64,000 bases of DNA from NCBI GenBank assembly GCA_951812955.1, contig OX638340.1:2400001-2464000 (forward strand). Reading direction: 5' to 3'. The DNA comes from an uncultured Gemmatimonadota bacterium (GTDB taxonomy: Bacteria > JAAXHH01). Position numbers and translations under genes: made by a program. The notes beneath the pieces are model-generated. The model did not search any database. It saw nothing but the letters and a program-made list of their open reading frames with translations, and was not told the origin of the DNA. Of this stretch, positions 1,541 through 37,436 are shown in pieces. Position 1 is the stretch's first letter, and the number at the start of each line of letters is the position of its first letter.

Positions 1541-4500
1541 ATGTCACAGCGTTATTTACCTACCTCGAAGTGCAGTTACCGTTTTGCCGTTTACATCATA
1601 ACCTGCGTAACCCTTCTTGGGCTGGCCACCTGCGGCAAGGATAGCCCCACCAAGACCGTTACACCGCCACAACCACCGGCGCCACAGCCTCCGACGCCAC
1701 AGCCTCCGACGACAACTCAACCCGCGCGTATAACAATCACGCCGAGATCGGCGAGTCTGTCCGCCATTGGTCAGAGGATACAACTGTCGGCCACGATTTA
1801 TGACAATCGCAATGTTCAGATCCCAGAAGCCGCAGTGTCATGGTCGAGCAACGATCCTGCCGTTGCCACAGTAGGAGCCCAAGGCCTTGTCACAGCGGTC
1901 GGCAACGGCACGGCCACAATCACCGCGCGGTCAGGAAACGCCTCAGAAACGGCATCCGTGACGGTCTTGCAGACCATCGCCAGTATCGTTGTCTTTCCCA
2001 TGCATAGCACGCTCTATGCCATAGGCGAGACCGTGCAACTAAACGCACTTGCGAGTGATAGGAGCTTGCAGAGTGTAGCCGATGCTGCCTTTACATGGAT
2101 TAGCGACAAACCTGCCGTTGCCACAGTAAGCGACCAGGGCCTAGTCACCGCGGTCAGCAAAGGCACGGCCACCATCACCGCGCGGTCAGGAAACGCCTCA
2201 GAAACTGCAACCGTGACGGTAGTCAGTAGGGACGATACAAGACTCAACCGAGAAGCCCTTGTCGCACTGTATCATAGTACGAATGGACCTGGCTGGACAA
2301 ACAGCACAAACTGGCTGAGCGATGCGCCCCTCGGAAATTGGCATGGCTTGGCTTCGTTTTTCCATGGAGAGGTGGAAGAGGTACGGCATCTTAACCTAAG
2401 GGAGAACAATCTCCAAGGCAAGATCCCACCCGAAATCGGGCAACTGCAGAGCCTAGTAAGTCTGGGGCTCTCCAACAACCAGTTGACCGGAAATATCCCA
2501 CCCGAAATCGGGCAACTCAATGAACTGACAAGCATGGAACTCTCCAACAACCAGTTGAGCGGATATATCCCATCCGAAATCGGGCAATTGCAGAAATTGA
2601 CAAGCATGGGCCTCTACAACAACCAGTTGACCGGAAACATACCATCCGAAATCGGGCAATTGCGAAAATTGACAAGCATGGGCCTCTACAACAACCAGTT
2701 GACCGGAAACATACCATCCGAAATCGGGCAATTGCAGGAATTGACCTTCCTGGGCCTCTACAACAACCAATTGACCGGAAACATACCAACCGAAATCGGG
2801 CAATTGCAGGAACTAACGCGCCTGGACCTCTCCAACAACCAGTTGACCGGAAACATACCAACCGAAATCGGGCAACTGCAGGAGCTTACAGAACTATTCC
2901 TTGGGTATAATTCTGGCCTTACCGGTCCACTGTCTGTAGAGCTCATCATGCTGTCCAATCTAGAGTTTTTTTATATACATAATACGCAGATATGCATTCC
3001 GCAAACATCTCAGTATCTGGCATGGTTTGAAGGTATACGAAACAGGTCAGGAGGTTTATACTGCCCCGCTCCTCATAGAGACTCCCTGATCGCACTGTAT
3101 GACCGGACGGATGGTCCCAACTGGACAAACAGCACGAATTGGAAAAGCCTTGATCCGCTGGACCAGTGGTACGGTATTACTGTTGACGGAGAAGGTCAGG
3201 TTACGGGACTTTCCCTGGAGAACAACAACCTGAACGGAGCGGTACCCCATCATCTGAGTGATCTTTCAAATCTCAAGATCCTCAACTTGTCGTTCAATCC
3301 AGGTCTAACGGGAATCCTGCCTGCTTCAGTGTCGCGCCTGGAACTGGAAGAACTGGAACTGGATGGTACACAGGTCTGCGCGCCTGCGGACACCGAATTT
3401 CAACAGTGGCTGGCTGATATCCCGCAACGTACTGTTACCAACTGTACCGATCTGCGACCGGACTATTATGCATTGGCCGGGCTGTATTTCAACACCACTG
3501 GACAGAACTGGACAAACAACACGAACTGGTTGAGCGACAGGCCGCTTAACACATGGTTCGGCGTGCAGACTAATTCAAGCGAAGAAGTCACGGGGCTGGA
3601 CTTAAAGGAGAACAATCTCGCGGGAGCTATCCCATCTGAAATTGGACAACTACAAAAACTTGAAAATCTGTACCTTTATAGGAACCAGTTGTCGGGCAGC
3701 ATACCCCAGGAAATCGGGCAATTGCAGGAACTGAGATTCCTGGATCTTTCTGATAATCGATTGGCAGGAGATTTACCACCCGAAATCTGGCGACTACAGA
3801 AACTCGAAAATCTGTTCCTTTATGGCAACCAGTTGTCGGGCAGCATACCACCCGAAATTGGACAACTACAGAAACTCGAAAATCTGTTCCTTTATGGCAA
3901 CCAGTTGTCGGGCAGCATACCCCAGGAAATCGGGCAATTGCAGGAACTGAGATTTTTGTATCTTTCTGATAATCGATTGGCAGGAGATTTACCACCCGAA
4001 ATCTGGCGACTACAGAATCTTAGGGCACTGGCTATTCGTGGCGATGCCTATAACCGGGATTCAGGCATCCAGTTGACGGGTATCATACCAGCTGAAGTAG
4101 CTCAGCTGGAAAACCTCGAAACTCTGAATCTCGAGTTTAACAGGTTAACGGGAAATATACCTCCCGAGATCGGAGACTTACAGAAACTCCGATATCTTAG
4201 ACTTGGTGGCAATCGGTTAACCGGGACAATCCCTTCTGAAATCGGAAAACTCCATAATCTGGTAGACCTGATACTTTCTAACAATCGCTTGACGGGGAAC
4301 ATTCCATCCAATATCGGGCAACTTCCGACCCTCGTGACACTTGATCTTTCCAGGAACGAACTGGAGGGTTCCATACCGGCTGAAATAGGAGGTCTACAAT
4401 CCCTTACACAATTGACGCTTAGCAACAACCAGTTGACCGGAACCATTCCAACAGAATTCGCGGGACTTGGCATGCTGGAAGTGCTACGCGTATCATTTAA

Positions 4501-6214
4501 TCGACTGTCGGGCAGTATCCCTGACTCCTTCGGCGATCTGGCCAACTTGAGATATCTGGGACTTACGGACAATGCCAACTTGTCTGGCACGCTGCCCCTA
4601 TCTCTTATCGGTCTGAATCTCGATGATCTGCTGCTCGGTGGCACGATGCTGTGCGCGCCTGAGATTACAGAGATCCAGGACTGGCTGCGGGAGATACCCA
4701 ATAGCCGCGTTTCCCGTTGCGACACCATTAACCTCCGATCTGTAGCTTACCTTACGCAGGCAGTGCAGACGCTGGAGTATCCGGTTCCCCTGGTAGCTGG
4801 TGAGGATGCACTCCTTCGCGTCTTCGTCACGTCCGAAACGGATATGGACGCCTATATGCCCCTGGTGCGAGCAACTTTTTACGAAGGTAGCGCCGAGGTG
4901 CATACCGTGGACATGCCGAGCCAGGAAACGCCCATACCCACGGAGGTCGATGAGGGCGACCTTTCGTCCTCAGCCAACGCACGCATTCCCGGGTCGGTGC
5001 TGACGCCCGGACTGGAGATGGTCATCGAGATCGATCCTGAAGGCGAGTTGGACCCCGCTCTTGGCATAAACGGACGATTGCCAGCGGAAGGACGGATAGC
5101 CATCGATGTACGAGAAATGCCTCCTTTCGATCTGACGATGGTACCTTTTCTGTGGACGGAGAACCCGGACAGGTCCATCCTGGCGCGGGTGGAAGGCCTG
5201 ACTGCCGATTCCGAACTCTTTCGACTTACACGCGATATCCTGCCGGTAGGTGAGTTTTATCTCACCATTCGCGAGCCTGTATGGACTTCGGTGGAGCCAA
5301 CCCCCCACAATTTTGGATCTACCTTTCGTGAGACAGTCACTATACATGCTATGGACGGCGCCGGCGGACACTATATGGGGGTTCTCACAGGGAGCGGTAC
5401 CGGGCTGGCCAATGCTCCGGGAGTAGTGAGTGTCTCAACGCTTGATAACATGGTTATCGCCCATGAACTTGGCCACAACATGAGCCTGGGGCATGCTCCG
5501 TGTGAAATCGGCAGCAACGATCATTTTATAGACCCCGATTATCCCTATCCAGTTTCGGCAGTTGGAGTTTGGGGATACGATCTGCTCAATGAGATGCCTG
5601 TGCAACCTGATACAAAAGAAGTTATGGGCTGTGGTAGCTGGATCAGCGATTACTTCTTCACCAAGGCTATAGGCTATCGATACTATCAAGAAAACGAAAC
5701 TTTGTTCTCCGCGGCATATGAACCACCAGTTCGAGGCCTGCTGCTCTGGGGTGGCGTGAACAGCGACGGTGAAGTTTTACTGGAACCGGCCTTTGTGGTT
5801 GACGCATCACCGTCTTTGCCCGACCTGTATGGGCCGTATCTACTGTCCGGCGAGGATGATGTCGGCGGCACGCTGTTCAGCCTCTCCTTCGGCATGGCCG
5901 AGATCGCAGACGGTGATGGCGAGAGAGCCTTCGCCTTCATCATTCCGGCGAGTACTGAGTGGTCAAACCGGCTTACGCACCTCACGCTGTCAGGGCCTGA
6001 GGGTGTCGCGACACTGGGCGGTGATGGGGGGTTGGAAGAGGAGCCTGCCGCCGCACTCCTGCTGGATCCCACCACGGGCAAAGTGAGAGGCCTCCTGCGC
6101 GACTGGCCGGTGCCGGGGATTACGGCTGTTTCAGCAAGGCGTGTGTTGCCTGAGCCGGGACTGGAGGTTTTTATCAGTTCGGGGGTGCCTGCTCCCGCCG
6201 ACTGGAGGCGGTAA
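1541..6214 (+). CDS. giant secreted lipoprotein: two Big_2 Ig-like domains, three LRRNT-capped plant-type LRR arrays, C-terminal M66/StcE-like zinc metallopeptidase domain
   Basis: 1557-aa ORF; signal peptide with lipobox LATCGKD; Pro-rich linker; duplicated Big_2-like units (ITARSGNASETA[ST]VTV twice); three cap motifs ALYxxTxGPxWTNxTNWLSDxPLxxWxGV each followed by 24-aa repeats LxxLxLxxNxLxGxIPxEIGQLQxL; C-terminal HELGHNMSLGH matches the extended zinc motif HE[VL]GHNxxLGH of peptidase M66 (StcE). Confidence 0.8.
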   Translation: MSQRYLPTSKCSYRFAVYIITCVTLLGLATCGKDSPTKTVTPPQPPAPQPPTPQPPTTTQPARITITPRSASLSAIGQRIQLSATIYDNRNVQIPEAAVSWSSNDPAVATVGAQGLVTAVGNGTATITARSGNASETASVTVLQTIASIVVFPMHSTLYAIGETVQLNALASDRSLQSVADAAFTWISDKPAVATVSDQGLVTAVSKGTATITARSGNASETATVTVVSRDDTRLNREALVALYHSTNGPGWTNSTNWLSDAPLGNWHGLASFFHGEVEEVRHLNLRENNLQGKIPPEIGQLQSLVSLGLSNNQLTGNIPPEIGQLNELTSMELSNNQLSGYIPSEIGQLQKLTSMGLYNNQLTGNIPSEIGQLRKLTSMGLYNNQLTGNIPSEIGQLQELTFLGLYNNQLTGNIPTEIGQLQELTRLDLSNNQLTGNIPTEIGQLQELTELFLGYNSGLTGPLSVELIMLSNLEFFYIHNTQICIPQTSQYLAWFEGIRNRSGGLYCPAPHRDSLIALYDRTDGPNWTNSTNWKSLDPLDQWYGITVDGEGQVTGLSLENNNLNGAVPHHLSDLSNLKILNLSFNPGLTGILPASVSRLELEELELDGTQVCAPADTEFQQWLADIPQRTVTNCTDLRPDYYALAGLYFNTTGQNWTNNTNWLSDRPLNTWFGVQTNSSEEVTGLDLKENNLAGAIPSEIGQLQKLENLYLYRNQLSGSIPQEIGQLQELRFLDLSDNRLAGDLPPEIWRLQKLENLFLYGNQLSGSIPPEIGQLQKLENLFLYGNQLSGSIPQEIGQLQELRFLYLSDNRLAGDLPPEIWRLQNLRALAIRGDAYNRDSGIQLTGIIPAEVAQLENLETLNLEFNRLTGNIPPEIGDLQKLRYLRLGGNRLTGTIPSEIGKLHNLVDLILSNNRLTGNIPSNIGQLPTLVTLDLSRNELEGSIPAEIGGLQSLTQLTLSNNQLTGTIPTEFAGLGMLEVLRVSFNRLSGSIPDSFGDLANLRYLGLTDNANLSGTLPLSLIGLNLDDLLLGGTMLCAPEITEIQDWLREIPNSRVSRCDTINLRSVAYLTQAVQTLEYPVPLVAGEDALLRVFVTSETDMDAYMPLVRATFYEGSAEVHTVDMPSQETPIPTEVDEGDLSSSANARIPGSVLTPGLEMVIEIDPEGELDPALGINGRLPAEGRIAIDVREMPPFDLTMVPFLWTENPDRSILARVEGLTADSELFRLTRDILPVGEFYLTIREPVWTSVEPTPHNFGSTFRETVTIHAMDGAGGHYMGVLTGSGTGLANAPGVVSVSTLDNMVIAHELGHNMSLGHAPCEIGSNDHFIDPDYPYPVSAVGVWGYDLLNEMPVQPDTKEVMGCGSWISDYFFTKAIGYRYYQENETLFSAAYEPPVRGLLLWGGVNSDGEVLLEPAFVVDASPSLPDLYGPYLLSGEDDVGGTLFSLSFGMAEIADGDGERAFAFIIPASTEWSNRLTHLTLSGPEGVATLGGDGGLEEEPAAALLLDPTTGKVRGLLRDWPVPGITAVSARRVLPEPGLEVFISSGVPAPADWRR
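2390..2900. repeat. near-identical 72-bp tandem repeats (encode 24-aa LRR units) inside the LRR gene, first array
   Basis: repeated DNA unit ...caaccagttgaccggaaacataccatccgaaatcgggcaattgca... visible at least 7 times; generates strings of antisense shadow ORFs. Confidence 0.85.
3640..4030. repeat. 72-bp tandem repeats (LRR units), third array of the same gene
   Basis: repeated ...ctttatggcaaccagttgtcgggcagcatacc(a/c)c(c/a)ggaaat(t/c)gg(a/g)caa(c/t)t(a/g)cag... units. Confidence 0.8.
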
Positions 6215-7365: not shown

Positions 7366-7523
7366 GACCCGGCCGGTCCGGTTTATTACTCAGGGTAAAC
7401 CGGGTTTCCGGAATCGACCGGGTTTCCGGAATCGACCGGGTTTCCGGGTTCGACTTGTATCCGGGCTCGACCGGATTCTCGGATCAGGCGGGTTGCCCGG
7501 ACGAACCGGTTTCCCACGCGGAC
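7366..7523. repeat. degenerate 18-bp direct-repeat array (about 7 units, consensus CCGGGTTTCCGGAATCGA) upstream of the DcyD-like gene
   Basis: units at 7400-7417 and 7418-7435 are identical, followed by progressively diverged copies; no spacers of unique sequence. Confidence 0.7.
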
Positions 7524-9025
7524 TTGAGTTCGTGGACGGTCAGCGATACGATGCGCGCGCCGCCGCTGTCCGACCGCAACGCCAGAGCGTGATTGGCCGC
7601 TGCCGGCAGGAAGCAGAATGACATGGACAATTCCCCACCGTTACCGAAGATCTCCAGGGAGGTGCGGTCGACCAGGAGCTGGAGCCGCACGCGCCGCCCG
7701 ATGGTCCTCAGGTCCGCGCTCCTTCCCATGCACGAAAGGGTCTGCCTTGCCGCGTCGTATGCCACATCGTGGCCCTGCACTTCGATGGTGAATCCCTTTC
7801 CTTCGCCGATTGCGTTGTCGGCTTGGCGCCCTTCAGCACCGCACACCTCGATCTCCATGCACACGTCGAACAGGTCGCCCTCTTCCGCAAGCACCAGCCG
7901 GCTTTCCGAGTCGCGCAGGCTCGTTACCGCGTAACTGCCGATCTCACCCCTGCCGTATTGCCGTCGAAACTGTTCGGCCGCCATTGCAGCCAGGTCACCG
8001 CCCGGCCAGTTGCGAGTCCCTGTATGAAGCAGTTCGATCTCCCTCACCGGCTCGCGGCACAGCCGTATACCCACCGGCAACGTCCTGAGCGTCAGCTCCA
8101 CCGGGAAGGTCATCTGCTGGTTGAAGGGCATGGCCGGGTATTTGCCGTCCCGCATCCACGAGATCTGGATCCGCCGTCCGTCCTCCGACGGGAGGTCGCT
8201 CCAGGTCTGGGCGGCATATCCGTTGGCGCCCTCTTCCGCCTGGAGGACGTCCGTTTCCGGCGTGAAGGTCTTGCCGTCGAAGCGCCCGAGCAGGTAACCG
8301 CCGCTCGCGCCCCAGAATACCCAACGCGTGTCCGAGGGATCTCCGTCCACCGGCAGTTCGAAGAAATCTGGACATTCAGACACGCCGGGCAGGGTCAGGT
8401 CCTGCAGACGCGTCCACGACCTGAGGTCCGGGGACGAGAACAGGGCGTAGTCGTTGCCGTCCATGAACAGGGTCATGATCCATCGCGCGGTCGGTTCGTA
8501 CCAGACCACCTTCGGATCCCGGTTCTCCGAACGGATATGCCCGATAACGGGATTGCCCGCATATTTCATCCACGTCCGGCCGCGATCATTGCTGTGGGCT
8601 ATACATTGTATACACCGCTTACCGGGGAACATCCTTTCGCCCCCCGCCGTGTAGAAGGCGATCAGGGGCGGATCATCTCCGTCCTGGAACCCGCCGGTAT
8701 TTTGATGGTCCACCGCCGCGGAACCCGACCACATCCATCCCGTGTCGTCCACGTCCAGCGCGGCGATATGGAGCTGCTTCCAGTGGACGAGGTCGGTGCT
8801 GACCGCGTGGCCCCACGTCGTGCGCCCGTGCACCATACTGCCCGGCGTGTGCTGGAAGTAAAGATGGTACTCCCCGTCGAAATAAACCAGTCCGTTGGGA
8901 TCGTTGATCCAGTGCTGCTTCGCCGTGAAGTGAAACTGGGGGCGGAGAGTTTCCCGGTAGAGGGTGTCGTTGGGCATCGCAGCGCCATTAGGTTTCGCTG
9001 ATTGGCCGGTCAGGATTCGCTCCAC
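7484..9025 (-). CDS. glycoside hydrolase family 32 (beta-fructofuranosidase / sucrose-6-phosphate hydrolase-like), cytoplasmic
   Basis: motifs HWINDPNGLVYFDGEYHLYFQ (catalytic nucleophile block), RDPKVVWYE (RDP) and ECPDFFEL (EC); no signal peptide; alternative start at 8977 (MPNDTLYRE). Confidence 0.9.
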   Translation of the reverse strand: MERILTGQSAKPNGAAMPNDTLYRETLRPQFHFTAKQHWINDPNGLVYFDGEYHLYFQHTPGSMVHGRTTWGHAVSTDLVHWKQLHIAALDVDDTGWMWSGSAAVDHQNTGGFQDGDDPPLIAFYTAGGERMFPGKRCIQCIAHSNDRGRTWMKYAGNPVIGHIRSENRDPKVVWYEPTARWIMTLFMDGNDYALFSSPDLRSWTRLQDLTLPGVSECPDFFELPVDGDPSDTRWVFWGASGGYLLGRFDGKTFTPETDVLQAEEGANGYAAQTWSDLPSEDGRRIQISWMRDGKYPAMPFNQQMTFPVELTLRTLPVGIRLCREPVREIELLHTGTRNWPGGDLAAMAAEQFRRQYGRGEIGSYAVTSLRDSESRLVLAEEGDLFDVCMEIEVCGAEGRQADNAIGEGKGFTIEVQGHDVAYDAARQTLSCMGRSADLRTIGRRVRLQLLVDRTSLEIFGNGGELSMSFCFLPAAANHALALRSDSGGARIVSLTVHELKSAWETGSSGQPA

Positions 9026-9047
9026 CGTTCGCTTTTGACGCCGCGAA

Positions 9048-9596
9048 TCACACGTTCGTCTCGATCAGCGTAACGCTGTGGGGATCCAGCAGGGTATAGT
9101 CCACGACTTCGAATCGGTTGCCGTCGACGTCGGTGAGCAAAAGCCGCGTATCCGAGGCCCAGTGGGTGTTCTCGTGGCCGCGGATGACGAACTCCCGTCT
9201 GCCCCGGTCGGTCATGACGTTCCAGTAGGTGACGCCGTACTCCATCTGAATGGAGTCAATGCGCTGTATCGTGGCGCGCAGGTACCGGTGGTCCAGCTCT
9301 TCCTCGATGACCTTGCGGGAATCTTCGTCCAGGTCGTCCATGTCCCGGATGAAGGCCACTTCCTCGTTCTTTATGTCCAGGAGCGACACGTACCGGTCGG
9401 TGTGGGCCAGGGGCGAGGCCTGGACCGGCCGGACGCGTATATAGGACCGCTCGGCGCCGACCGTCATGCGCACCGTGTTCGTCGGCGCCCGGAAGACCCG
9501 TATCTCGTGAGCCTGATAGGGTTCGACGGGGGCGTTCTCGATGCCCGTCTCGAATTCAAAGCTGTCCGGCGCGTCTACGCCTGGTTCATCCGGCAT
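9048..9596 (-). CDS. small acidic cytosolic protein, hypothetical; last gene of the ABC exporter operon (possibly DUF1854-like, recalled from memory)
   Basis: 182-aa ORF, starts 14 bp downstream of the upstream ABC gene stop; no TM segments; no catalytic motif recognised. Confidence 0.5.
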   Translation of the reverse strand: MPDEPGVDAPDSFEFETGIENAPVEPYQAHEIRVFRAPTNTVRMTVGAERSYIRVRPVQASPLAHTDRYVSLLDIKNEEVAFIRDMDDLDEDSRKVIEEELDHRYLRATIQRIDSIQMEYGVTYWNVMTDRGRREFVIRGHENTHWASDTRLLLTDVDGNRFEVVDYTLLDPHSVTLIETNV

Positions 9597-9610
9597 TTCT
9601 ATCTCCCCGC

Positions 9611-11899
9611 TCAGGATGTATGTCCGTTGGCGCCGCTGTGCGGGTCGTTCCGGCCCCCGCCCACGGCCATGACGGCGGTGCTGGCACGCTGGGTTTCAAC
9701 CATTCGGTAGAAATGACCCTTCATGCCCAGCAGCTCCGCATGAGTGCCCGTCTCCACGATCCGTCCCGCGTCCAGCACCACCAGACGGTCCGCTCGGCGA
9801 AGGGTCGACAGCCGGTGGGCGATGGCAAAAGTCGTCCGGCCCTTCACGAGATTGGCGATGGCCTCCTGGATGAGCTTCTCCGTGTGGGTGTCCACCGAGG
9901 AGGTGGCCTCGTCCAGGATCAGGATGCGGGGATCGTGGATGATAGCCCGCGCGATGGCGATCCGCTGCTTTTCGCCGCCCGACAGTTCCTTGCCGTTCTC
10001 GCCGATCTGCGTATCGTATCCGTCGGGCTTCGCGCAGATGAAGTCGTGGGCGTTCGCCGTCCGCGCCGCCCGCATGATCTGCTCGAAGGAGGCGTCCGGA
10101 CTGCTGTACCGGATGTTCTCCGCGACGGATCCGCTGAAGAAGTAGGAGTCCTGCAACACCACGCCGATCTGCCTTCGAAGGTCCTTCAGGCTGATGTCCC
10201 GGATCGGCACGCCGTCGATCTTCAGGCCGCCGTCATCGATATCGTAAAACCGGCACAGCAGGTTGGTCATCGTCGTCTTGCCGGAACCGGACTTGCCTAC
10301 CAGACCGATCATCTCGCCCGGCTGCACGTGGAGGTTGATGTCGTGGAGTACGGGCTTGCCGGCCTCGTAAGCAAAGACCACGTCGCTGAATTTCACCTCG
10401 CCCTTTACGTCATTCATCTCTACCGGGACGTCCCGATCCTCGGTTTCCGCCGGCGTGTCTACGATCTCGAAGACCTTTTCCGCGCCGCTCATGGCACGGC
10501 TCGACCAGGTGTTCAGTTCGCCGAACCACCGAAGGGGCTCGTAGAGCATCCAGAGATAGGCGATGAACATCATGAGTGCGCCGAGGGTGAACGAGTCGTC
10601 GATTATGGCAGAACCCCCGTAGTACCAGACCAGGATCAGGCCAGACGAGGTAAGCATGCTGACCGTGCTGAAGAACACGGCCGCCTCCTTCTCGCTTTCG
10701 TAATCTCCCCGGAAGACGCCTTCGTTGCTGCTGCGGAACCGGCGCATCTCACGTTTTTCCTGGACGAAGGTCTTGACGACGCGCACGGAGGAGAGCATCT
10801 CGCCCGCGAGCCCTACGAGTTTGCCCCACCGGTAGTACTTCGTCCGGAAAGCCCGGATCAGCCGGATCCAGAAGAACCATCCTCCCGTTACGAGCAGAGG
10901 TATGGGAATGAGCACGAGAAGCGTGAGTTGCCAGCTGGTTATAAAAAGCAGGACCAGGATGCCCACCATGAGCAGGAGGTTGGTAATGATGTAGGGCACT
11001 CCGTCGACCAGGAACCACATCATGCTTTCCGTGTCGTTGGACACCCGCGAAATCAGGGATCCGACCTGGCGCTTGTTGTAGAATTTCATGCTCAGGCGGG
11101 AAAGGTTCTCGTACAGGTCTTCGCGGACGGACACGATCACGCGGCCGCCGAGCCATACGGAAAGCCGGTCCCTGAAGATCTCGAGGACGTAGGATCCCAG
11201 GCGGACGAACGCGAACGCGCCGATGAGGTAGTAGAGGAACGTCAAGGCGTCCTCGCGCGCGTCTACGTCCGCGACCAGGACGTCGTCGATGATGTAACGC
11301 ATAATGTAGGGCGGGCCGAGTTCCGCCAGGGTGAAGAGGAGCGACAGGAATACCATCATCGCGATGCGGCCCTTGAAGGGCAGGGCATACTTGGCGATCC
11401 GTCCCATCATCGCGAGCCGGTTGGTGCACGCCGAACAGATCCCGTTCGGCTCAGGCAGGAGGCGGTCGCATTTGCCGCACCTTGTCCGGTCTACTTCTCC
11501 CTGCATGTCGACCGGTTCGTCCTTGATGAGCTGGTCGATGCCCCGGGCGATCCGAGCGAACTTGGCGCGCTGGGTCGCGGTGTAGCGGAGGACCTCGATC
11601 TCTTCGTTTCCGATTACCACGTTGATTCGGCCCGAGCCTACCAGTTCCTCCACTGCGGCGCTTTTGGCGTCGGAAAACTCGATGGAAGCGTCCCCGTTTC
11701 CCATGCTTGCGCCGTTGGAATCGAACCGCATCAACCGCTGGTCCGTCACCACGAGCCAGCGTTCCTCGAACCGCAGTTCTTCCGTCAGGTCGGTCGCCGC
11801 CGCGATGCGGATGGTTTCCCCTTCCCGCAGCGCCTCCCGGCAACGGTCGGCCAGCGCGTCGGGCATCCGCTCTTCGTAGCTGGTTGTGCTATCCGTCAT
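9611..11899 (-). CDS. ABC exporter, fused permease/ATPase half-transporter with N-terminal PH-like domain and CxxC-x17-CxxC zinc ribbon
   Basis: 762 aa; Walker A GKSGSGKTT, ABC signature LSGGEKQRIAIARA, Walker B ILILDEATSS; 6-TM type-I exporter core; about 150-aa cytosolic N-terminal extension with CGKCDRLLPEPNGICSAC. Confidence 0.9.
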   Translation of the reverse strand: MTDSTTSYEERMPDALADRCREALREGETIRIAAATDLTEELRFEERWLVVTDQRLMRFDSNGASMGNGDASIEFSDAKSAAVEELVGSGRINVVIGNEEIEVLRYTATQRAKFARIARGIDQLIKDEPVDMQGEVDRTRCGKCDRLLPEPNGICSACTNRLAMMGRIAKYALPFKGRIAMMVFLSLLFTLAELGPPYIMRYIIDDVLVADVDAREDALTFLYYLIGAFAFVRLGSYVLEIFRDRLSVWLGGRVIVSVREDLYENLSRLSMKFYNKRQVGSLISRVSNDTESMMWFLVDGVPYIITNLLLMVGILVLLFITSWQLTLLVLIPIPLLVTGGWFFWIRLIRAFRTKYYRWGKLVGLAGEMLSSVRVVKTFVQEKREMRRFRSSNEGVFRGDYESEKEAAVFFSTVSMLTSSGLILVWYYGGSAIIDDSFTLGALMMFIAYLWMLYEPLRWFGELNTWSSRAMSGAEKVFEIVDTPAETEDRDVPVEMNDVKGEVKFSDVVFAYEAGKPVLHDINLHVQPGEMIGLVGKSGSGKTTMTNLLCRFYDIDDGGLKIDGVPIRDISLKDLRRQIGVVLQDSYFFSGSVAENIRYSSPDASFEQIMRAARTANAHDFICAKPDGYDTQIGENGKELSGGEKQRIAIARAIIHDPRILILDEATSSVDTHTEKLIQEAIANLVKGRTTFAIAHRLSTLRRADRLVVLDAGRIVETGTHAELLGMKGHFYRMVETQRASTAVMAVGGGRNDPHSGANGHTS

Positions 11900-12059
11900 G
11901 CCTCAGTGTCCTTGCCTATTCCGACGGCCGGCTTCGTTAAAGTCCTCACGGACCGGCCGGTTTTGATCAAACTTCGGTCAGGCCCCGGTCAAGCCTCACG
12001 GATCTTCCCGGCCGGCACGTGAGCGGTCAGGCCCCGGTCAAGCCTCGTTCAGGCCCTGG

Positions 12060-14324
12060 TCAGGCAACCTCCATGATCTCGGAGGTGGCTTTCTGCAGCC
12101 GCACCAGATGATGGAAATGACCGCGGTTTGCGATCAGTTCCTCGTGGGTGCCTTCCTCGACGACCTTTCCCTGCTCCAGCACCACGAGCCTGTCGGCGTC
12201 CCGCAGCGTGGAAAGGCGGTGGGCGATGGCGATCGTGGTGCGTCCCTTGATCAACCGGGCAATGGCTTCCTGGAGCTGTTTCTCCGTCTCGGCGTCCACC
12301 GAGGAGGTCGCCTCGTCCAGGATCAGGATGCGGGGGTCGTGGAGGATCGCCCGGGCGATCGAGACGCGCTGCTTCTCACCGCCCGACAGTCCGTTGCCCT
12401 TGTCCCCGAGTATCGTGTCGTATCCATCGGGCTTTGCGAGGATGAAGTTGTGGGCATTTGCCGCCCGGCCCGCCGCCATGATATCCTCAAAACTCGCGGC
12501 GGGTTTTCCATAGGCGATATTCTCCCGGATCGTCCCGTTGAAGAGGATCGGTTCCTGCAGGACGACGCCGATATGGCCACGCAGATCCTCGAGCCGGATG
12601 TCCCGCAGGTCCACGCCGTCCAGGGTGATCGAACCGTAATTGACATCGTAGAACCGGCAGATGAGATTGATGGTCGTACTCTTCCCGGCGCCCGACTTGC
12701 CAACCAGCCCGATCATCTCGCCGGGCCGGATCCGGAGATTGACGTCCCGGAGCACCGGAAGGGCTGCGTCATAGCCGAAGGTCACGTTATTGAATACGAT
12801 CTCGCCCTGCGTGCGCGGCATCGGCTTCGCGGTCCGGTCCTCATAATTCTCCGGTTCCATGTCGATGAGCTCGAATACCCGTTCGGCGGCGCTCATCGCC
12901 CGGGTCATCCAGCTGTTGACCCGGCCGAGCCACCGTAGCGGTCCGTAAAACATCTGCAGGTAGAAGTAGAACAACATCAGTTCGCCCGGGGTAAGTTCCT
13001 GGCCGAGCACCTGCCTGCCCCCCACCAGCCAGACCACGATGAAGCCCAGGAAGTTCAGCAGGCCCATGGTGGAGAAGTAGTAGATCCACTGCTTCTCGGT
13101 CCAGTATTCCAGGGCGAACATGTCCCGCGCGTTGCGCCTGAACCGGTCGACTTCCCTGTTTTCCTGTGCGAAGGCCTTGACGATGCGAATCCCCGAAAGG
13201 GACTCCTGGATGTGGGTGAAGAACCCTTCCCATTGGCGCCACATGCGTGTGTAATAGGACCGCAGTCTTCGGTACAGGACCCGGCCCCATATGACGATGA
13301 ACGGCACGGGAATGAGAATGTAAAGCGTGAGCACCCAGTTGGTATACAACAGCATACCGATGATCCCGAGCGTCGTCAGCCAGCGGAGGACGAGGAATGG
13401 CAGGCCGTCCACCAGGAAGCTGCGCACGTTCCGGGTGTCCCGCGTAACCCGCGAAAGCAGGCCGCCCGTCTTTTGCTTGTCGTGGAATCCCAGCGACAGG
13501 TATTCGACGTGGTGGTACACCTGGGCCCGGATATCCGCCACAACCCGGGCGCCTACCCAGGCCGTCAGCCAGCCGTTCGCCATCTCGCCCAGCCAGCGGA
13601 TGACAAGCAGTCCGGCCATGGCCGCGACGAACCAGAACAGAAGCTCCTTGTCCCCGTCCGGGAAGGCGTCGTCGATGATGAGCTGCGTGATCTTGGGCGG
13701 GAGGAGTTCCGCCACACTGAGTACCGCGAAGAGCCCCACCATGGTTATGGCCTTGGCCCGATGGGCGCCAAGGTAGGAGCAGATCCGCTTGAGCATGCCC
13801 CACTTGCTGACACAGGCCGGACACAGCCCGTCCTTCGTGGGCAGGCGACGGCCGCAAGTCTCGCAGACTACCCGCGGGAACTCGGTCTTGACCTGGAACG
13901 GCTTTTCCTCGATGTGCTGCTCGATACCGCGCTGCGCCTCGTTGAAGACGTCGACCCGGCTCTGGGAATACCGGATGAGCGGGATGGTGTCTTTGGCCGT
14001 GGAAACTTCCAGGCAGGAACCGCCGACCAGGGGTTCCACCGCCACCCTGGTCAGGTCCGCCAGCGGGACGGCGATGTCGTCGCCGGCGCCGTTGAGTTCC
14101 AGGGTCATGACGCGGCGGTCGGTTACGATGAGCCAGGAAGGCTCGAATCGGCCTTTCGCATCCATGTCCGATTCCAGGGTGATGCGGATTTCTTCGTTGG
14201 GTTCCAGAACGGGGTAGAGTTTTTTCTGAATCTGATCCGGCAGGGGATCGGCCAGGCGCATAGAACTTCCTTTGGGCCTATGCTGCGGGGAGTGGCTGCG
14301 TGCGGACTGAACGGAACCGTTCAT
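12060..14324 (-). CDS. ABC exporter half-transporter, paralogous partner with the same N-terminal PH-like plus zinc-ribbon extension
   Basis: 754 aa; GKSGAGKST, LSGGEKQRVSIARA, ILILDEATSS; N-terminal CETCGRRLPTKDGLCPAC; alternative start at about 14261 (MRLADPLPD). Confidence 0.9.
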   Translation of the reverse strand: MNGSVQSARSHSPQHRPKGSSMRLADPLPDQIQKKLYPVLEPNEEIRITLESDMDAKGRFEPSWLIVTDRRVMTLELNGAGDDIAVPLADLTRVAVEPLVGGSCLEVSTAKDTIPLIRYSQSRVDVFNEAQRGIEQHIEEKPFQVKTEFPRVVCETCGRRLPTKDGLCPACVSKWGMLKRICSYLGAHRAKAITMVGLFAVLSVAELLPPKITQLIIDDAFPDGDKELLFWFVAAMAGLLVIRWLGEMANGWLTAWVGARVVADIRAQVYHHVEYLSLGFHDKQKTGGLLSRVTRDTRNVRSFLVDGLPFLVLRWLTTLGIIGMLLYTNWVLTLYILIPVPFIVIWGRVLYRRLRSYYTRMWRQWEGFFTHIQESLSGIRIVKAFAQENREVDRFRRNARDMFALEYWTEKQWIYYFSTMGLLNFLGFIVVWLVGGRQVLGQELTPGELMLFYFYLQMFYGPLRWLGRVNSWMTRAMSAAERVFELIDMEPENYEDRTAKPMPRTQGEIVFNNVTFGYDAALPVLRDVNLRIRPGEMIGLVGKSGAGKSTTINLICRFYDVNYGSITLDGVDLRDIRLEDLRGHIGVVLQEPILFNGTIRENIAYGKPAASFEDIMAAGRAANAHNFILAKPDGYDTILGDKGNGLSGGEKQRVSIARAILHDPRILILDEATSSVDAETEKQLQEAIARLIKGRTTIAIAHRLSTLRDADRLVVLEQGKVVEEGTHEELIANRGHFHHLVRLQKATSEIMEVA

Positions 14325-14701
14325 ATATCAATAAAGTGGATGCACCCTTAAGCCATCATTGCCGCGAATGCCGTTGAAGCATTCATCGGGAGTGCGTTAA
14401 ACCCCCGTCCGAACCAGTTTGTGAAAGTACATTTTCGAGCACCAAAGTCAAGGAGAAGCTTCGGCATGAACGCGTTTATTTCCTGTATATTCCTTGATTT
14501 ACGTACGCCTCCGCTTACATTGCGTGAGGTCGTTCCGAACCTGAATTTTTACCGCATGTGATCGTCCCGAACCCGTATCCTTACCGTGTGTGGCCATTCG
14601 GTACCCGTATACCCACAACCTGAAATCACCCTGAACGCCAGATCTCATCCGAGTTCTCACGGGGCCGATCATTCCCCGGCCCTGTCACGACAGCCTGACT
14701 C

Positions 14702-15763
14702 ATGATGACCCCGCACCGATTGGAAAATCTGTTGTCCCGCTTCGCCGGACTGTCCGTCCTGGTCGTCGGCGACTTCTTCCTCGACAAGTACCTGGTCATC
14801 GATCCGGATCTCGATGAGCCGTCCCTGGAGACCGGGCTGCACGCGCACCAGATAGTGGACCGCCGGTGCATGCCAGGCGCAGCGGGTACGGTCACGTCCA
14901 ACCTGCACGCCCTGGGCGTCGGGAACATCCATGCCCTCGGCGTCACGGGCGACGACGGGGAAGGATACGAACTCAGGCAGGGGCTGGCGGCGATGGATGT
15001 GCGGCTGGAGGGACTGATCGTATCCCCGGAACGATTCACGCCCACCTACATCAAGCCCATGTACCGCGAGCAGGGCGTAGAGCGGGAATCGAACCGGATC
15101 GACCTGCAGAACCGGACGTCCACGCCGGGTGCGCTGGAAGACCGGATCATCGAAAACCTGCGAGACATGGCGCCCGTGATGGATGGGCTGGTCGTACTGG
15201 ACCAGGTGGGACAGCGCAACACCGGGGTCGTCACGGACCGGGTCCGGGAAGCGATCTGCGACCTGGGCAGGACCCAACCGGAAAAGGTCATCCTGGCGGA
15301 TTCCCGCGAACGCATCGGCGAGTTCCGTCATGTGATTCGCAAGGGGAACCGAAGCGAAATCCACCGTGCCGCGCCGGACAGGTCGGACAGGTCGGAAAGA
15401 ACGGGCAGAACGGACAGATCGCATGCGGCCGGATGGGGCCAGGCGCTTTTCGAACGCGGCCTGGACGCGGGCGAAGGAACTTACAGGCCGGTTTTCGTCA
15501 CCCTGGGCGAGGACGGCTTGCTAGTGATCGATGACGACGGCTGCCGTCATTTGCCGGGCATCACGGTTCCCGGGTCCGTGGACACGGTCGGTGCGGGAGA
15601 CAGCGTCACCGCCGGGATCGTTTCCGCGCTCGCCGCCGGCGCGACCCTTGACGAGGCTGGCTTGGTGGGAAACCTGGCGGCTTCCGTCACCGTCCGGCAA
15701 CTTGGGGTCACCGGAACGGCGTCGCCGGGGCAGCTGTTGGAAGCTTTGAAAGCGCTAGGTTGA
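14702..15763 (+). CDS. PfkB-family carbohydrate kinase (RfaE/HldE kinase-domain-like)
   Basis: N-terminal LSVLVVGDFFLDKYL and C-terminal PfkB signature DTVGAGDSVTAGIV; contains a low-complexity insert RSDRSERTGRTDRS encoded by short DNA repeats. Confidence 0.75.
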   Translation: MMTPHRLENLLSRFAGLSVLVVGDFFLDKYLVIDPDLDEPSLETGLHAHQIVDRRCMPGAAGTVTSNLHALGVGNIHALGVTGDDGEGYELRQGLAAMDVRLEGLIVSPERFTPTYIKPMYREQGVERESNRIDLQNRTSTPGALEDRIIENLRDMAPVMDGLVVLDQVGQRNTGVVTDRVREAICDLGRTQPEKVILADSRERIGEFRHVIRKGNRSEIHRAAPDRSDRSERTGRTDRSHAAGWGQALFERGLDAGEGTYRPVFVTLGEDGLLVIDDDGCRHLPGITVPGSVDTVGAGDSVTAGIVSALAAGATLDEAGLVGNLAASVTVRQLGVTGTASPGQLLEALKALG

Positions 15764-15797: not shown

Positions 15798-18700
15798 TTA
15801 CTTCGCTCCGGCCTTCTCACGCGTACGCCTGCCACTCAGATAGGCCTTCAGCTTCGGCGGAAAATCCCGCTTGACCAGTTCCTGCCGCAACGCCCACTTT
15901 TCTTCGTCCGACACCGGAGACGCCTCCCTGATATCACCGCCCTCCATGATCAGGATCGGTTCGCCGTCCCGGTAGAGGATCCGGTTGTTGGTGATGCCGG
16001 GAATGCGCCGCCCGGGCGTAATGATCCCGACCAGATTGAGCGGGTCGGCCGCGCTGATGGCGACGAGCGTGCCCTGCTTCTCCTTCCGCCGGATACTTCT
16101 CAAAAGGGTGACGGCCTCGCCCAGGGCGTACTGCTCGCCCCAGACGCCGTTCACGAACCGGCCGCCGCGGATCTCTCCCCTTGCTTCCATCCGCCTCAGT
16201 ACCCGTACCAGGTCCCTCCACGGCGGCGAGGTGTTTTCCCGTTCCGTGAGCCGCCTGAACACCACGCCGTACCTGGCCAGGGCGACGCGGGCATAGGCCT
16301 CGAGATCCTCCTCCGGGTTGCCGTCCTCCGGTGTCCTGGCAGTCAGCCCCCACCGTCCCGCCGTCGACAGGTCGAAGGGATTCCTGCGTTCCCGTCCCCG
16401 CCTGGACTCCCTGTGGCGCGTCGGCGCCAGCAGGGCCCTGAGCCCCGCGAAACTGTCGGAGGTCGCCATCCCCGCCGAGACCAGTTCCGCCACGGCTTCC
16501 TCGGCGTGGGTACGCAGGATCCCGGCCTGCGCGACGATGTCGTCGAAGAACACAGCGCCTTGCCGGGTCATGACGTCCAGTGCCGTCTTCGCGTAGGTGG
16601 ACAGCGAAAGATCCTCGTCGCCGGTCACGCCGCTCAGGGACATCCACAGCGACCGGTTCATGCGGTCCACGATGGCGATGGGCGTCGTTCGGATCGGGCC
16701 GGCCGTCTTCCCGTTCTCGCCGTTCGATTTATGGGGACGAAGCCGTCCCCACGCGTACTTGCCGGAAAGACACAGGTTGTCGAGCCAGACATAATCGTAG
16801 TCGGTAACGCGGGAAGGCAGGATCTCGCTCTCCCAGGCCGCGGCCGGCGCCTCCACGCCTTCGAGCATGCGCAGCACGGCGGTCACGGCGTCGGCCCCCT
16901 TCAACCGGGTGTCTGGCGCCAGGTGATGCCAGGTGAAAAGGAACTGCATGAAGTCGGCAGGTGAAACAGGCTGGATTTCGCGGCGCAGCTTCGTGATCGT
17001 GAAGCGATGGATCCGGGCGAGAAGCCGGCGCTCGCACCATTCCAGCCCGTCCGCGGCCGGCGAAAACTGTCCTCTGAAGACAAATCCCTCGTTCTCGAGC
17101 ACGGAAAGTGCCTTTTCGATCTTCCCGACCGGCAGATCAATGGAATCGGCCAAAGCAGCAGCCGTAACCGGGCCGAGTGTCTCCAGTCTTCCGCGCACCA
17201 GTTCCACCAGGGCGGATTCTTCCGTCGCGGATGCTCCACCCGCGGATGCTCCACCCGCGGGTTGAAAACTCTTTTCCAGGTTGCCCCTCACTTCGGCCGG
17301 GATTTCCTCCTCCGGCTCGAACCTTCCCTGCGGGTGCACCTGCTCGAAGTGAATGCGTCGCTCAAGGGGCGCCCACAATCGCCGGCCTCCACGGGTGATG
17401 AGCGTGGCGGCCCGGCGGTCGCCTTCCAGCTCGGCGTAGTAGTCCGTCCAACTCCCGTACTGATCCCCCTTCTTTCCCTCTTCCTCCGTCACGTACCCCG
17501 CGAGCACCAGAGCGTCGTGGAGTTCGTCGGGACTCCGCACCTCGGGCCAGGCGTCGCCGCGGACGGTGTCGATGGCCTCCGGGTCCAGGCGTCCCAGGTC
17601 CCCCGCTACGGCCGGGTCGAGCCAGCGGCGGTTCCGAACGGCGTTGGTCCGCCGCTCCTCGAGCGGCGCGTCGTCCAGGAAGGCGTACGGACGGGCGTTG
17701 AGAATCTCCTCCGCCATGGGCGAGGGCTCGCGGAGGTCCCGCGCGTGCACGTTCATTTCCCCTGCCTTCATCGTCTTCAGCACGGACTCCAGCGTCTCGA
17801 TGTCCATGGCCTCGTGCAGGCAGTCTTCGATGGTCTGGCTGACCAGGGGATGGTCCGGCACTTCCCGGTCTCCCGCGATATTCTCGAGGCACGCGATCTG
17901 GTCGGGGAAGATCTGGGCGATCAGGTCTTCGGACACGGACCGCTGTATCTGCGGCGGCACCCGGTCCCCGCCCCTGCGCCGCAACACGGCCAGGGCGATC
18001 GACGCGTTCCACCGCCAGCGCACCTCGAACATGGGCGCGTCGAGCAGGGCCTGGACCAGGACTTCGCGTACCGAAGCGGCGTTGAGGTATTTGAAAACGT
18101 CGTCGAGGGGAAAGCTGTGGGTGGCGCCCAGGGACAAAATGATGGCATCCTCGTTCGCCGCGGCCTGCAGCTCGAAGTTGAACGTGCGGCAGAACCGCTT
18201 GCGCAGGGCAAGGCCCCATGCCCGGTTTACCCGGCTGCCGAAGGGACTGTGGAGCACGAGGTGCATGTCGCCGGCCTCGTCGAAAAACCGCTCGGCCACC
18301 AGGTCCTTCTGGGAGGGTATCACGCCGAGTGCAGCCTTGGCAGTGCCCAGGTACTCCGCGATCTGCGTCGCCGCCACGTGGGAGATGCCCGCGGACTCCA
18401 TCAGCCATTCCTCGGCCTCCCGCTTCCATTCCGCGTCGAGCTTTCTTCCGCTATCCCGTCCGTTTACGGCATCCGATCCGTCGTTGTTCAACGGTCCGTT
18501 TTCGGCGCCCGATCCGTCGTCAGTGTTCAGCGGTCCGTTTTCGGCGCCCGATCCGTCGTCAGTGTTCAGCGGTCCGTTCCCGATGTCCATCCGGCTCGCA
18601 ACTTCCTCTCTCAACCGCGACAGGGAAGCGGATAGTTCGGCCGTCCTCCCCGGCGCTTCGCCGAACCAGAAGGGCATCGTGGGCGGCATGCCCTGGGCGT

Positions 18701-20351
18701 CCTCCACCCGGATCTTGCCCTTCTCCACGCGCAGGATGCGCCACGAGTTGTTGCCCAGTTGCACGATGTCCCCGGCCGTGCTCTCGATGGCGAAGTCCTC
18801 GTTCAGCGTACCGATGAAAGTCTCCGTCGGCTCCATGATCACGTCGTAGTCGAACTGGTCCGGGATCGTTCCGCCCGACATCAGGGCGTTGATCCGGGCC
18901 CCTCCGCGGCCCTTGACCGCTCCGTTCATCAGGTCACGCTGGATGTAGGCGTGCTTGCGCCCACGACGCGGGGTATAGCCCTCGGACAACATGGCCACGA
19001 CGCCGTCGAATTCCTCCCGGGACAGGGCGCGGTAGGGATAGGCCTTCCGCACCAGGTGGTACAGGTCGTCCTCCTGGAAGTCGCAGTTGGCCACCTCCGC
19101 GATGATCTGCTGGGCCAGCACGTCCAGCGGCTTTTCGGGGATGATGATGCGGTCGAGTTCTCCCCGCCGCACCGAATCCATGATCGCGGCCGCCTCCACC
19201 AGTTCGTCGCGCGTCAGGGGGAACAGGCGCCCTCGCGGCGTGCCCGTGATCGTGTGGCCGGAGCGGCCCACGCGCTGGATGAGCGTCGCGATGGCCTTGG
19301 GCGAACCGATCTGGCACACCAGGTCGACCGACCCGATGTCGATCCCGAGTTCCAGGGAGGCCGTGGCCACGAGGGCCTTCAGCGTGCCGGCCTTGAGCCG
19401 CTGTTCGGCGTCGTGGCGATGCTCCTTCGACATGCTGCCGTGGTGGGAGGTGACGTTCTCCACGCCCAACCGGTCGCTCAGGTGGCGGGCCAGCCGTTCC
19501 GACATGCTCCGCGTCGTGACGAAGACCAGCGTGGTCTCGTGCCGGAGAATGAGCTCCTCTAGGCGTTCATACACCTCCTCCCACACTTCGTTGGACATGA
19601 CCGCGCCGAGCGGGGAGCGTGGCACCTCGATCTTGAGCTCGAGTTTCCGCCGATGGCCGGTGTTGAGGATCTTGCATCCCTCTCCCTTCGCGTAGCCCGC
19701 GCCGGTGAGGAAGTGGGCGATCCGGTCGATGGGTTTCTGTGTTGCCGATATGCCGATGCGCGTAAGTGGACCGGAGGTAAGCCGTTCCAGGCGCTCCACA
19801 GAAAGGGCCAGGTGCGATCCCCGTTTGTTGCCCACCAGCGCGTGGATTTCGTCGATGATGAGGGTGTGCACATTCGGCAGGATGCGCCGGCCCCCCGCGC
19901 TCGTGAGCAGCAGGTACAGGCTTTCCGGCGTCGTTACCAAAATGTGGGGCGGGTGCTTCGTCATGGCGGCGCGCTCGCTCGTGGGCGTATCGCCCGTGCG
20001 GACCGCCACGCGGATGGGCACGTCCGGCCTCTCGCGCTCCTTCAGGATCGCCCGGATGCCCTTCAGGGGGACCTGCAAGTTGGCGTGGATGTCGTTGCTG
20101 AGGGCCTTCAGGGGCGATACGTAGACGATCTGGGTGCCCTCGGGCAGCGAACCGTACTGGCCCTGTCGGACCAGGTCGTCGATGGAAGACAGGAAGGCGG
20201 CAAGCGTCTTGCCGGAACCTGTGGGTGCGGCGATCAGCGCGTGCTTCTGCTGCTTGATGACCGGCCAGGCACGCTTCTGGATGTCGGACGGTTCCGCGAA
20301 CCGTTCCTCGAACCAGGCAGCCACGGCGGGATGGAAGAGGTCGTTGGTCAT
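15798..20351 (-). CDS. lhr: large ATP-dependent helicase Lhr
   Basis: 1517 aa; N-terminus [14 protein letters not shown] (helicase motif I), DEIH (motif II), and length/architecture of Lhr; in-frame low-complexity insert. Confidence 0.9.
18470..18585. repeat. 39-bp in-frame tandem repeat (about 2.9 copies) inside lhr
   Basis: unit gatccgtcgtcagtgttcagcggtccgttttcggcgccc; encodes [13 protein letters not shown] three times on the minus strand. Confidence 0.85.
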
Positions 20352-24000: not shown

Positions 24001-24111
24001 CCTCGCCGCCGGCAAAGATTCCGCAAATTCGAAGTAAGTAAATAACCATCAGTAAGGAGTTTTAGAAATAGTAATTTCTATTGACAATAGTAAGGGTTTT
24101 CTTGTAGAGTA

Positions 24112-24381
24112 ATGATATTGTCCGATGACCATGGGAGACATACGACCGTGATTGAATCCGGCATCACGAGCAAAGGGCAGACCACGGTGCCCAAGTTGGT
24201 ACGGGAAGCGCTTGGTCTGGAGTCCGGCGACAGGGTGCGATACGTGATTGATGACCAGGAAGTGCGCATGCTGCCCGTACGTCCGATCGGCAGGCTGTTT
24301 GGCGTACTCAGACATTGTGGCCCACCCGTCACCATCGACGAGATGGAACAGGCCGTTGCCCGCGGAGCCGTCGACCAATGA
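24112..24381 (+). CDS. vapB: AbrB/SpoVT-fold antitoxin (VapB-like)
   Basis: ITSKGQTTVPKLVREALGLESGDRVRYVIDD swapped-hairpin motif; overlaps downstream PIN gene. Confidence 0.6.
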   Translation: MILSDDHGRHTTVIESGITSKGQTTVPKLVREALGLESGDRVRYVIDDQEVRMLPVRPIGRLFGVLRHCGPPVTIDEMEQAVARGAVDQ

Positions 24382-24770: not shown

Positions 24771-24906
24771 GGAACGAATACTCACCCGTCCGATGTTTTA
24801 CCGAGTGACCAAATAGCTGAAACGAACCAGGGAAGATTGCCTGCTTACCATGAAGAAGCGCTGCTACTTAATCGAGGCATACGCTTCTTCTTAATCGAGA
24901 CATACC

Positions 24907-25764: not shown

Positions 25765-25837
25765 GGGATGAGAGCCCCGATCAGATGAAGGATTGCTCAA
25801 CCTGTTGGGTATGGTTTTCGATCCCGTGTTTACCAAC

Positions 25838-37429: not shown

Positions 37430-37436
37430 AAATGGA

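Follow-up and report, generated by a model that had tools for sequence, protein, structure and literature searches.

ATP-binding cassette (ABC) exporters select their cargo by means of accessory domains, of which only a few kinds are understood: C39 and C39-like domains, the carbohydrate-binding domain of Wzt, and TMD0. In PCAT1 and HlyB, the cytosolic N-terminal domain directly ahead of the first transmembrane (TM) helix, TM1, is the cargo-docking element. Another architecture is catalogued in NCBIfam as a proteobacterial, cphA-linked and cyanophycin-associated pair, consisting of an ABC transporter (NF052233) with a PH-like domain, a CxxC...CxxC motif, a six-TM ABC_membrane domain and a nucleotide-binding domain (NBD) in this order, followed by a DUF1854 gene (NF052234). 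In Acidovorax and Cupriavidus, the genes for DUF1854 and the ABC transporter have been reported to share cofitness with cphA/cphA'; the same study proposed polymer efflux and named DUF1854 as a candidate subunit of this kind of transporter (Price et al. 2016, bioRxiv 10.1101/072470). A cphA-cphA-ABC cluster was also noted in a study of activated sludge (PMC10687191). Here we analyzed a three-gene module of the same order in a 64-kb stretch of DNA (64,000 nucleotides; hereafter, the window) from an uncultured Gemmatimonadota bacterium (contig OX638340.1, positions 2,400,001 to 2,464,000). Coordinates below are positions in the window, and the module lies on the minus strand. It is a self-contained operon encoding a predicted three-component ABC exporter, made of two paralogous half-transporters, each with a PH-fold domain and a putative zinc ribbon ahead of TM1, and a soluble DUF1854 protein.

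The module comprises three co-directional open reading frames (ORFs) of 754, 762 and 182 amino acids (aa) at 12060-14324, 9611-11899 and 9048-9596, encoding exporter subunit A, exporter subunit B and the DUF1854 protein, respectively. Subunit A probably starts at Met22 of its ORF (ATG at 14261), which gives a 733-aa protein encoded by 12060-14261. This ATG is preceded by a Shine-Dalgarno sequence (AAGGAAG) 6 nt upstream, the upstream ATG at 14324 has none, and most of the orthologues listed, the closest of which has 733 aa, are 731-760 aa long, with alignments beginning near Met22 at 97% query coverage. With this start, the module most likely ends at 14261. The stop of the subunit B gene and the DUF1854 gene are 14 nt apart. 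The original prediction, made from the window alone, had described two exporter genes followed at this distance by a small acidic protein, and both the gene order and the gap were borne out by the coordinates and by full-length Pfam domains in the exporters.

Both exporter subunits have a complete ABCB-like core. Pfam assigned ABC_membrane and ABC_tran domains over their full length to subunit A (E = 4e-50 and 8e-34) and to subunit B (E = 3e-41 and 2e-33), and the Walker A motif, Q-loop, signature LSGGE, Walker B with the catalytic Glu, and H-loop are canonical in both. In subunit A, the ABC_membrane domain, supported by hydropathy segments as well, spans residues 198-463 of the 754-aa ORF (12936-13733; profile positions 7-274 of 274) and the NBD core, with its ATPase motifs, residues 525-674 (12303-12752). 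A six-TM ABC_membrane domain followed by an ABC_tran NBD with all motifs defines a type IV (ABCB-like) half-transporter, and this is the arrangement found in A and B. The best sequence matches in the PDB were ABCB1/B4/B11, Sav1866, MsbA and TM288, with TM288 and TmrAB-type chains among the best bacterial ones (E about 1e-110). These chains aligned only from query residue 148 or later, and none covered the N-terminal domain. By hydropathy, TM1 starts at about residue 169 in A (733-aa form) and about residue 179 in B, and the first 150 residues of both proteins contain no hydrophobic segment. The extension had been put at about 150 residues; measured, it is about 170. The NBD comes after the six-TM domain, and given the topology usual for such transporters, both N-terminal extensions must lie in the cytoplasm.

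Each half-transporter starts with an acidic domain of predicted PH fold that is tethered by a long helix and directly followed by a four-cysteine motif. The domain and a helix ahead of it occupy residues 1-117 in A (733-aa numbering; 13911-14261); in B, the domain lies at about residues 24-125 (11525-11830). When the full proteins were scanned with Pfam, the N-domains matched bPH_3 and double zinc ribbon families weakly (bPH_3 in B: E = 0.025, below the cut-off). The N-domain of A scanned alone reached 23.3 bits against bPH_3 (PF14470), whose gathering threshold is 23, and bPH_3 matches were obtained for the N-domains of 12 of 24 family members, with a best E-value of 5.8e-7. An AlphaFold2 model calculated from an alignment of 35 N-domains (predicted local distance difference test score, pLDDT, 86.8; predicted template modelling score, pTM, 0.75) showed a helix at the N-terminus, seven beta-strands and a long helix at the C-terminus of the PH-like fold (residues 100-117), then the cysteine knuckles (133-150) and a helix (153-165) leading into TM1. 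The PH-like superfold is recognized by a seven-stranded beta-sandwich capped by a C-terminal helix and by a sequence match to a PH family, both of which were found here. The N-domain of B aligned with that of A in every column and retained the D, W, T and Y residues and the C-terminal helix motif. The beta-rich, PH-like segment proposed in the original prediction, whose quoted motifs WLIVTDRRVMTL and WLVVTDQRLMRF are present in the sequence, is supported by these data. The proposal that it is not a C39, CBS, FHA or cNMP-binding domain was likewise upheld, as a Pfam scan of the exporters gave no such match.

Following the PH-like domain, the cysteines are spaced CxxC-x10-CxxC in both subunits (CETCGRRLPTKDGLCPAC in A and CGKCDRLLPEPNGICSAC in B), and not CxxC-x17-CxxC as first read. 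In A, the knuckles C133, C136, C147 and C150 (13806-13874) lie immediately ahead of the elbow helix and TM1; the corresponding cysteines of B, C141...C158, are encoded at 11426-11479. A zinc ribbon consists of two CxxC knuckles about 10-20 residues apart that bind a metal. We regard the motif as a putative zinc ribbon, with zinc binding suggested by the motif itself; DZR, DZR_2 and Zn_ribbon_LapB matched most members weakly, below the cut-off. All four cysteines were present in 120 of 120 orthologues and in all 63 genes of each paralogue clade, and D32, T47, Y98, R159 and Y163 were kept to a similar degree. Both N-domains are under purifying selection. The N-domain has an isoelectric point (pI) of 4.5-4.7 and an acidic, not a basic, beta1-beta2 loop, which counts against the classical phosphoinositide-binding mode.

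This N-domain appears to be confined to transporters of this kind. An exhaustive HMMER search of 1.84 billion representatives recovered it in only 436 clusters at 50% identity, always at the N-terminus, and the full-length proteins were ABC-sized. Bacterial bPH_3 domains (PDB 3b77) are among the closest known systems. The N-domain profile retrieved only zinc-knuckle noise from the PDB sequences, a PDB sequence search placed the N-domain in no solved ABC transporter, and no paper describing a PH-zinc N-domain was found in a literature search. The N-domain did not turn out to be one already well characterized in function, and conservation of the small gene in the neighbourhood was observed, both of which accord with the original prediction.

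The small protein, tentatively assigned to DUF1854 in the original prediction, indeed belongs to this family (PF08909; 135.8 bits against a gathering threshold of 26.8, E = 1e-39, profile positions 1-128 of 130). It has a pI of 4.67 and no hydrophobic or TM segment, in agreement with its description as acidic and soluble. In an AlphaFold2 model (pLDDT 79.7), an acidic, disordered tail at the N-terminus precedes two beta-rich lobes that each end with a helix; no solved relative of this predicted fold was found. Its invariant residues are concentrated in two charged motifs, TDRGRREF and DVDGNRF. The possibility that it arose from the N-terminal PH domain by duplication and divergence was rejected, as the two are unrelated at the profile level (hhalign probability 0.9%). 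The relationship of DUF1854 to the transporter is illustrated by a natural fusion, P0208 (913 aa), in which the N-domain, ABC_membrane and ABC_tran are followed by DUF1854 at the C-terminus, with the motifs of this branch kept. The fusion is strong indirect evidence that DUF1854 acts together with the ATPase domain, on the cytoplasmic side of the membrane. Together with the tight synteny, it supports the earlier suggestion that the small protein is a third subunit or a regulator, and we consider DUF1854 a putative cytoplasmic subunit of the exporter.

We next consider the paralogous pair. When 142 exporters were placed in a neighbour-joining tree, one clade took up 62 of 63 first-position genes and another 62 of 63 second-position genes, including subunit B of the window; the exceptions were attributed to ORF-calling problems. 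A and B of the window are 45-46% identical, and within a locus the two share 38% identity in the N-domain, 41% in the transmembrane domain and 68% in the NBD. On sequence grounds, A and B are old, separate lineages in a fixed gene order. An old duplication with fixed order is what would be expected of an obligate A/B heterodimer, so that a heterodimer, as inferred earlier from the mere presence of a paralogous pair, is probable and now indirectly supported. Single-gene forms, presumably homodimeric, occur in Poribacteria metagenome-assembled genomes (MAGs) and in Ralstonia. The well-studied bacterial heterodimeric exporters have one degenerate ATP site. TM287/288, TmrAB and BmrCD resemble the module in their tandem paralogous half-transporter genes and ABCB-type core, but differ from it in this degenerate site, since the ATP motifs of both subunits are canonical here; the module is not of the TM287/288 class in this respect. 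We know of no solved heterodimeric type IV exporter chain with a DUF1854 partner.

To place the module among its relatives, one genome per species was scanned, which gave at least 467 loci encoding this branch of DUF1854; the counts below refer to the best 80 of them. These loci come from MAGs labelled Latescibacterota, Gemmatimonadota, Poribacteria or unclassified. The module was present in about 75 of the 80, a recurrence indicating that the feature is not due to chance and answering the neighbourhood conservation check that had been proposed. About 65 loci have a tandem pair of ABC genes, each encoding the N-domain, with DUF1854 following on the same strand; in nine Poribacteria loci a single ABC gene precedes it. 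From the last ABC gene to the DUF1854 ORF as called, the distance is about 0-160 nt, mostly <100. When look-ups were begun from ABC homologues instead, DUF1854 again adjoined the ABC gene in two of three cases.

The best NCBIfam matches of the three proteins were the cyanophycin-associated models NF052233 and NF052234, aligned over nearly their whole length. NF052233 covers the whole protein including the N-domain, and A and B aligned with its profile positions 9-747 of 766. The scores nevertheless remained below the curated cut-offs: 617.5 bits for A and 611.2 bits for B versus 880, and 97.6 bits for DUF1854 versus 150. A pair that passes these cut-offs (1460 for NF052233 and 234.2 for NF052234) was found on a replicon of Ralstonia wenshanensis, where one ABC gene and DUF1854 are divergent to two adjoining cphA genes. 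The window proteins are 38% (ABC, full length) and 33% (DUF1854) identical to this pair. WLVVT and the CxxC...CxxC motif are common to the ABC proteins of both. In DUF1854 of Ralstonia, SDSHGIHY stands in place of DVDGNRF. Pfam detected no CphA in the window, and tblastn with two CphA proteins gave no match in the window or 90 non-Ralstonia loci, which together amount to about 1.78 Mb. Linkage to cphA/cphA', which defines the cyanophycin-associated system functionally, was accordingly seen neither in the window nor in these 90 loci. Two neighbours suspected of being CphA were discarded: a 981-aa protein at the Poribacteria loci is a YdiJ/GlpC-like dehydrogenase, and for a neighbour with a Mur_ligase_M match tblastn with CphA gave nothing. 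The scores below the cut-offs, the lack of a cphA neighbour and the absence of DVDGNRF from Ralstonia indicate that the module of the window belongs to a sister branch and is not an equivalog member. Whereas the NF052233/NF052234 pair is proteobacterial and cphA-linked, the module occurs in MAGs of Latescibacterota, Gemmatimonadota and Poribacteria, with the exporter duplicated to A/B. The architecture as such is already catalogued in NCBIfam and in one functional-genomics study; what is new at this locus is the A/B duplication, the independence from cphA, the distinct DUF1854 signature and the occurrence in poorly studied phyla.

We propose that the PH-zinc domains and DUF1854 serve a heterodimeric exporter as a cytoplasmic cargo-docking or gating platform, a reading that we hold to be evenly balanced between right and wrong. 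The two PH-zinc domains and DUF1854 would form a platform beneath the transporter on its cytoplasmic side, which would capture a cytoplasmically made hydrophilic cargo or gate its entry, and transport across the inner membrane would then be powered by ATP hydrolysis at both sites. Since the PH domain has no basic loop for lipid binding and the accessory parts are both acidic, the most likely cargo is a polymer or peptide-like molecule and not an anionic lipid. Several described systems offer partial parallels. PCAT1 and HlyB likewise carry a cytosolic globular domain, C39 or C39-like, directly before TM1 of an ABCB-type exporter, but theirs has a papain-like C39 fold, whereas that of the module is a PH domain with a putative zinc ribbon. 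The module exporters have no Peptidase_C39 match, and no conserved HlyD-type neighbour that would place them in the PCAT or type I secretion (HlyB) class; across the loci, no conserved HlyD-type or other membrane-fusion gene, or outer-membrane partner gene, was found. In Wzt of O-antigen ABC exporters, which serves as an analogy only, a beta-rich cytosolic domain behind the NBD recognizes the polymer cargo, and DUF1854 of P0208 takes the same position; Wzt, however, belongs to another transporter class (ABC-2/type V), and no sequence or fold similarity was found. The PH-domain proteins DdE/DdF are genetically required for ABC-linked export of the leaderless bacteriocin enterocin DD14 (PMC8657885), which provides a precedent for a PH-fold protein acting with an ABC transporter in export. 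DdE/DdF are separate membrane proteins of the bPH_2/YdbS-YdbT type, whereas the PH domain of the module is soluble, fused to the transporter and next to a putative zinc ribbon.

Several observations weigh against this proposal. The structures are predictions, and zinc binding was deduced from the motif. In some genomes (L001/L002 and L087/L088) DUF1854 is encoded with no ABC gene within 10 kb, and one A+B pair (L094) has no DUF1854 within 7 kb, so the partnership is not always in one operon. No other neighbour family was found in >20 of the 80 loci, a result that leaves the module to behave as an autonomous unit, and the searches for CphA in the window and in the related loci, described above, were negative. 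Finally, these data do not distinguish cargo docking from a purely regulatory role. In the latter case, the PH-zinc domains and DUF1854 would not handle cargo but respond to a ligand or state of the cytoplasm by turning the ATPase on or off, in the manner of the C-terminal domains of MetN, ModC and MalK or the CBS domains of OpuA. The position of DUF1854 behind the NBD in P0208 is that of known regulatory domains, its invariant charged motifs resemble a small-ligand site, and it can be encoded away from the transporter. However, the known trans-inhibition domains are those of importers, a cytosolic domain directly before TM1 docks cargo in PCAT1 and HlyB, and the gene context suggests no ligand. 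We consider regulation alone a possible explanation, though one that we do not expect to prove correct.

The remaining explanations concern the cargo. An exporter or flippase of glycans or glycolipids (like MsbA, PglK, NdvA or HepA), whose PH-GRAM-like domain binds a lipid-linked or sugar cargo, seems unlikely to us. After the cyanophycin model, the next-best NCBIfam matches were indeed MsbA, MsbA-related, NdvA glucan and HepA exporters, but the similarity to MsbA is generic to the ABCB core. Bac_transf, Poly_export, Polysacc_synt_2, GT4, Wzz and DegT genes flank the module at the divergent loci L089, L091, L092, L093 and L094; such polysaccharide genes were nevertheless nearby in only 8 of 95 sources (tblastn), which amounts to no general association. 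An rfaE-like PfkB kinase gene stands beside the module in the clade of the window and at L089, and a GH32 gene lies 22 nt downstream in the window, yet the synteny of both is confined to close relatives. The acidic PH domain with its acidic beta1-beta2 loop also argues against binding of anionic lipid head groups. That the module exports true cyanophycin, or a cyanophycin-like polyamide, as in the proteobacterial branch, with cphA elsewhere in the genome, is in our view improbable. The full-length matches of all three proteins to the cyanophycin-associated models, the identity to the cphA-flanked Ralstonia pair and the cofitness data from Betaproteobacteria speak for it; against it stand scores far below cut-offs that Ralstonia passes, the negative tblastn searches, the replacement of the invariant DVDGNRF by SDSHGIHY in Ralstonia and the duplication of the exporter to a heterodimer. 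Least credible by far is a role of the DUF1854 protein as cargo, or as an immunity or defence component, and not as a subunit. A small acidic protein right after an ABC exporter does recall peptide or bacteriocin export loci, but DUF1854 is predicted to be a folded, two-lobed protein of 160-190 aa without a leader, and in P0208 it forms an extension of the NBD at the cytoplasmic C-terminus. A defence-system role was examined with PADLOC and rejected: only generic NBD similarity was returned (mad3, mad8), and DUF1854 had no match.

The surroundings of the module vary among relatives. The order Lhr-PfkB-[module]-GH32-PALP of the window is syntenic only in close relatives, and PfkB, GH32, PALP and Lhr were for this reason dismissed as functional partners. 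The GH32 gene (beta-fructosidase or sucrose-6-phosphate hydrolase-like; 7484-9025, minus strand) starts 22 nt after the DUF1854 stop and may be co-transcribed; in relatives it is 80 nt to 8 kb from the module, and the coupling is not conserved. The rfaE/HldE-like PfkB kinase gene (heptose-7-phosphate kinase family, below the cut-off; 14702-15763, plus strand) is divergent to the module and also adjoins it in the distant single-ABC lineage L089 (10468-11421 of that locus), where a SIS-domain gene follows. This adjacency may be a weak link to sugar-nucleotide metabolism, or a coincidence. The divergent intergenic region (14262-14701) between the module and the kinase gene is the presumed promoter region; scans of 8800-15000 gave no sigma-70 consensus and no terminator, and an Rfam search of the same interval gave no match. 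Between the A and B genes lies a 160-nt spacer (11900-12059) with two exact copies of GGCTTGACCGGGGCCTGACCG, at 11975-11995 and 12024-12044, 49 nt apart. The spacer of the closest relative (L006) is 49 nt shorter, which together with the exact copies points to an apparently recent 49-nt tandem duplication. In many relatives, the A and B genes overlap by 4 nt. On the other side of the GH32 gene, between it and the PALP gene (CuyA/D-cysteine desulfhydrase-like), there is a perfect 18-nt tandem repeat, ACCGGGTTTCCGGAATCG, in 2.7 copies (7399-7474). A 39-nt tandem repeat of 3.2 copies (18458-18578) encodes repeated peptides inside the Lhr-type helicase gene (15798-20351).

Other parts of the window contain several features of note. 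A 1557-aa protein (1541-6214, plus strand) carries many leucine-rich repeats and Big_2 domains, with arrays of a 72-nt period at 2426-2890 and 3638-3948; the GC content of this region is lower (0.50-0.54), and eukaryote-like repeat proteins of this type are frequent in host-associated bacteria. At 28484-33412 (minus strand), a DnaE2-like second Pol III alpha (1132 aa) lies beside an ImuB-like protein of Y-family polymerase fold (496 aa), an arrangement suggestive of an SOS mutagenesis cassette; the other ORFs of the window include a LexA-like protein (Peptidase_S24 and LexA_DNA_bind). Lower-GC stretches at 24000-28000, 34000-38000 and 44000-51000 (0.50-0.58 versus 0.61-0.70 elsewhere), in which two DUF4143/AAA_14 ATPase genes (26922-28319 and 34816-36057) are located, may be islands acquired by horizontal transfer. 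The scanned ORFs of the window also comprise an AbiEii toxin and DUF6088. An 869-aa ORF in a high-GC region (51275-53884, minus strand) had no Pfam match.

The functional data for this family consist of the cofitness with cyanophycin-synthetase-like genes in two Betaproteobacteria. The branch described here is widespread without cphA, is duplicated to a probable heterodimer and has invariant DUF1854 motifs of its own, so the label 'cyanophycin-associated' is not simply transferable to it. This family extends the accessory parts of ABC exporters by a domain of PH fold and putative zinc ribbon ahead of TM1 and by DUF1854 as a dedicated soluble partner. A defined set of residues, namely D32, W43, the four cysteines, TDRGRREF and DVDGNRF, can be targeted in structural and genetic work. 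More speculatively, and with the chances clearly against it, the PH-zinc domains and DUF1854 could be an undescribed cargo-recognition apparatus that, in Latescibacterota, Gemmatimonadota and Poribacteria (many of them represented by symbiont-type MAGs), was rewired from cyanophycin synthetases to the secretion of another polymer or peptide. If so, it would represent a new route of polymer secretion with its own logic of substrate selection. If the accessory parts are cargo receptors, they would constitute a new selection mechanism for polymer export.

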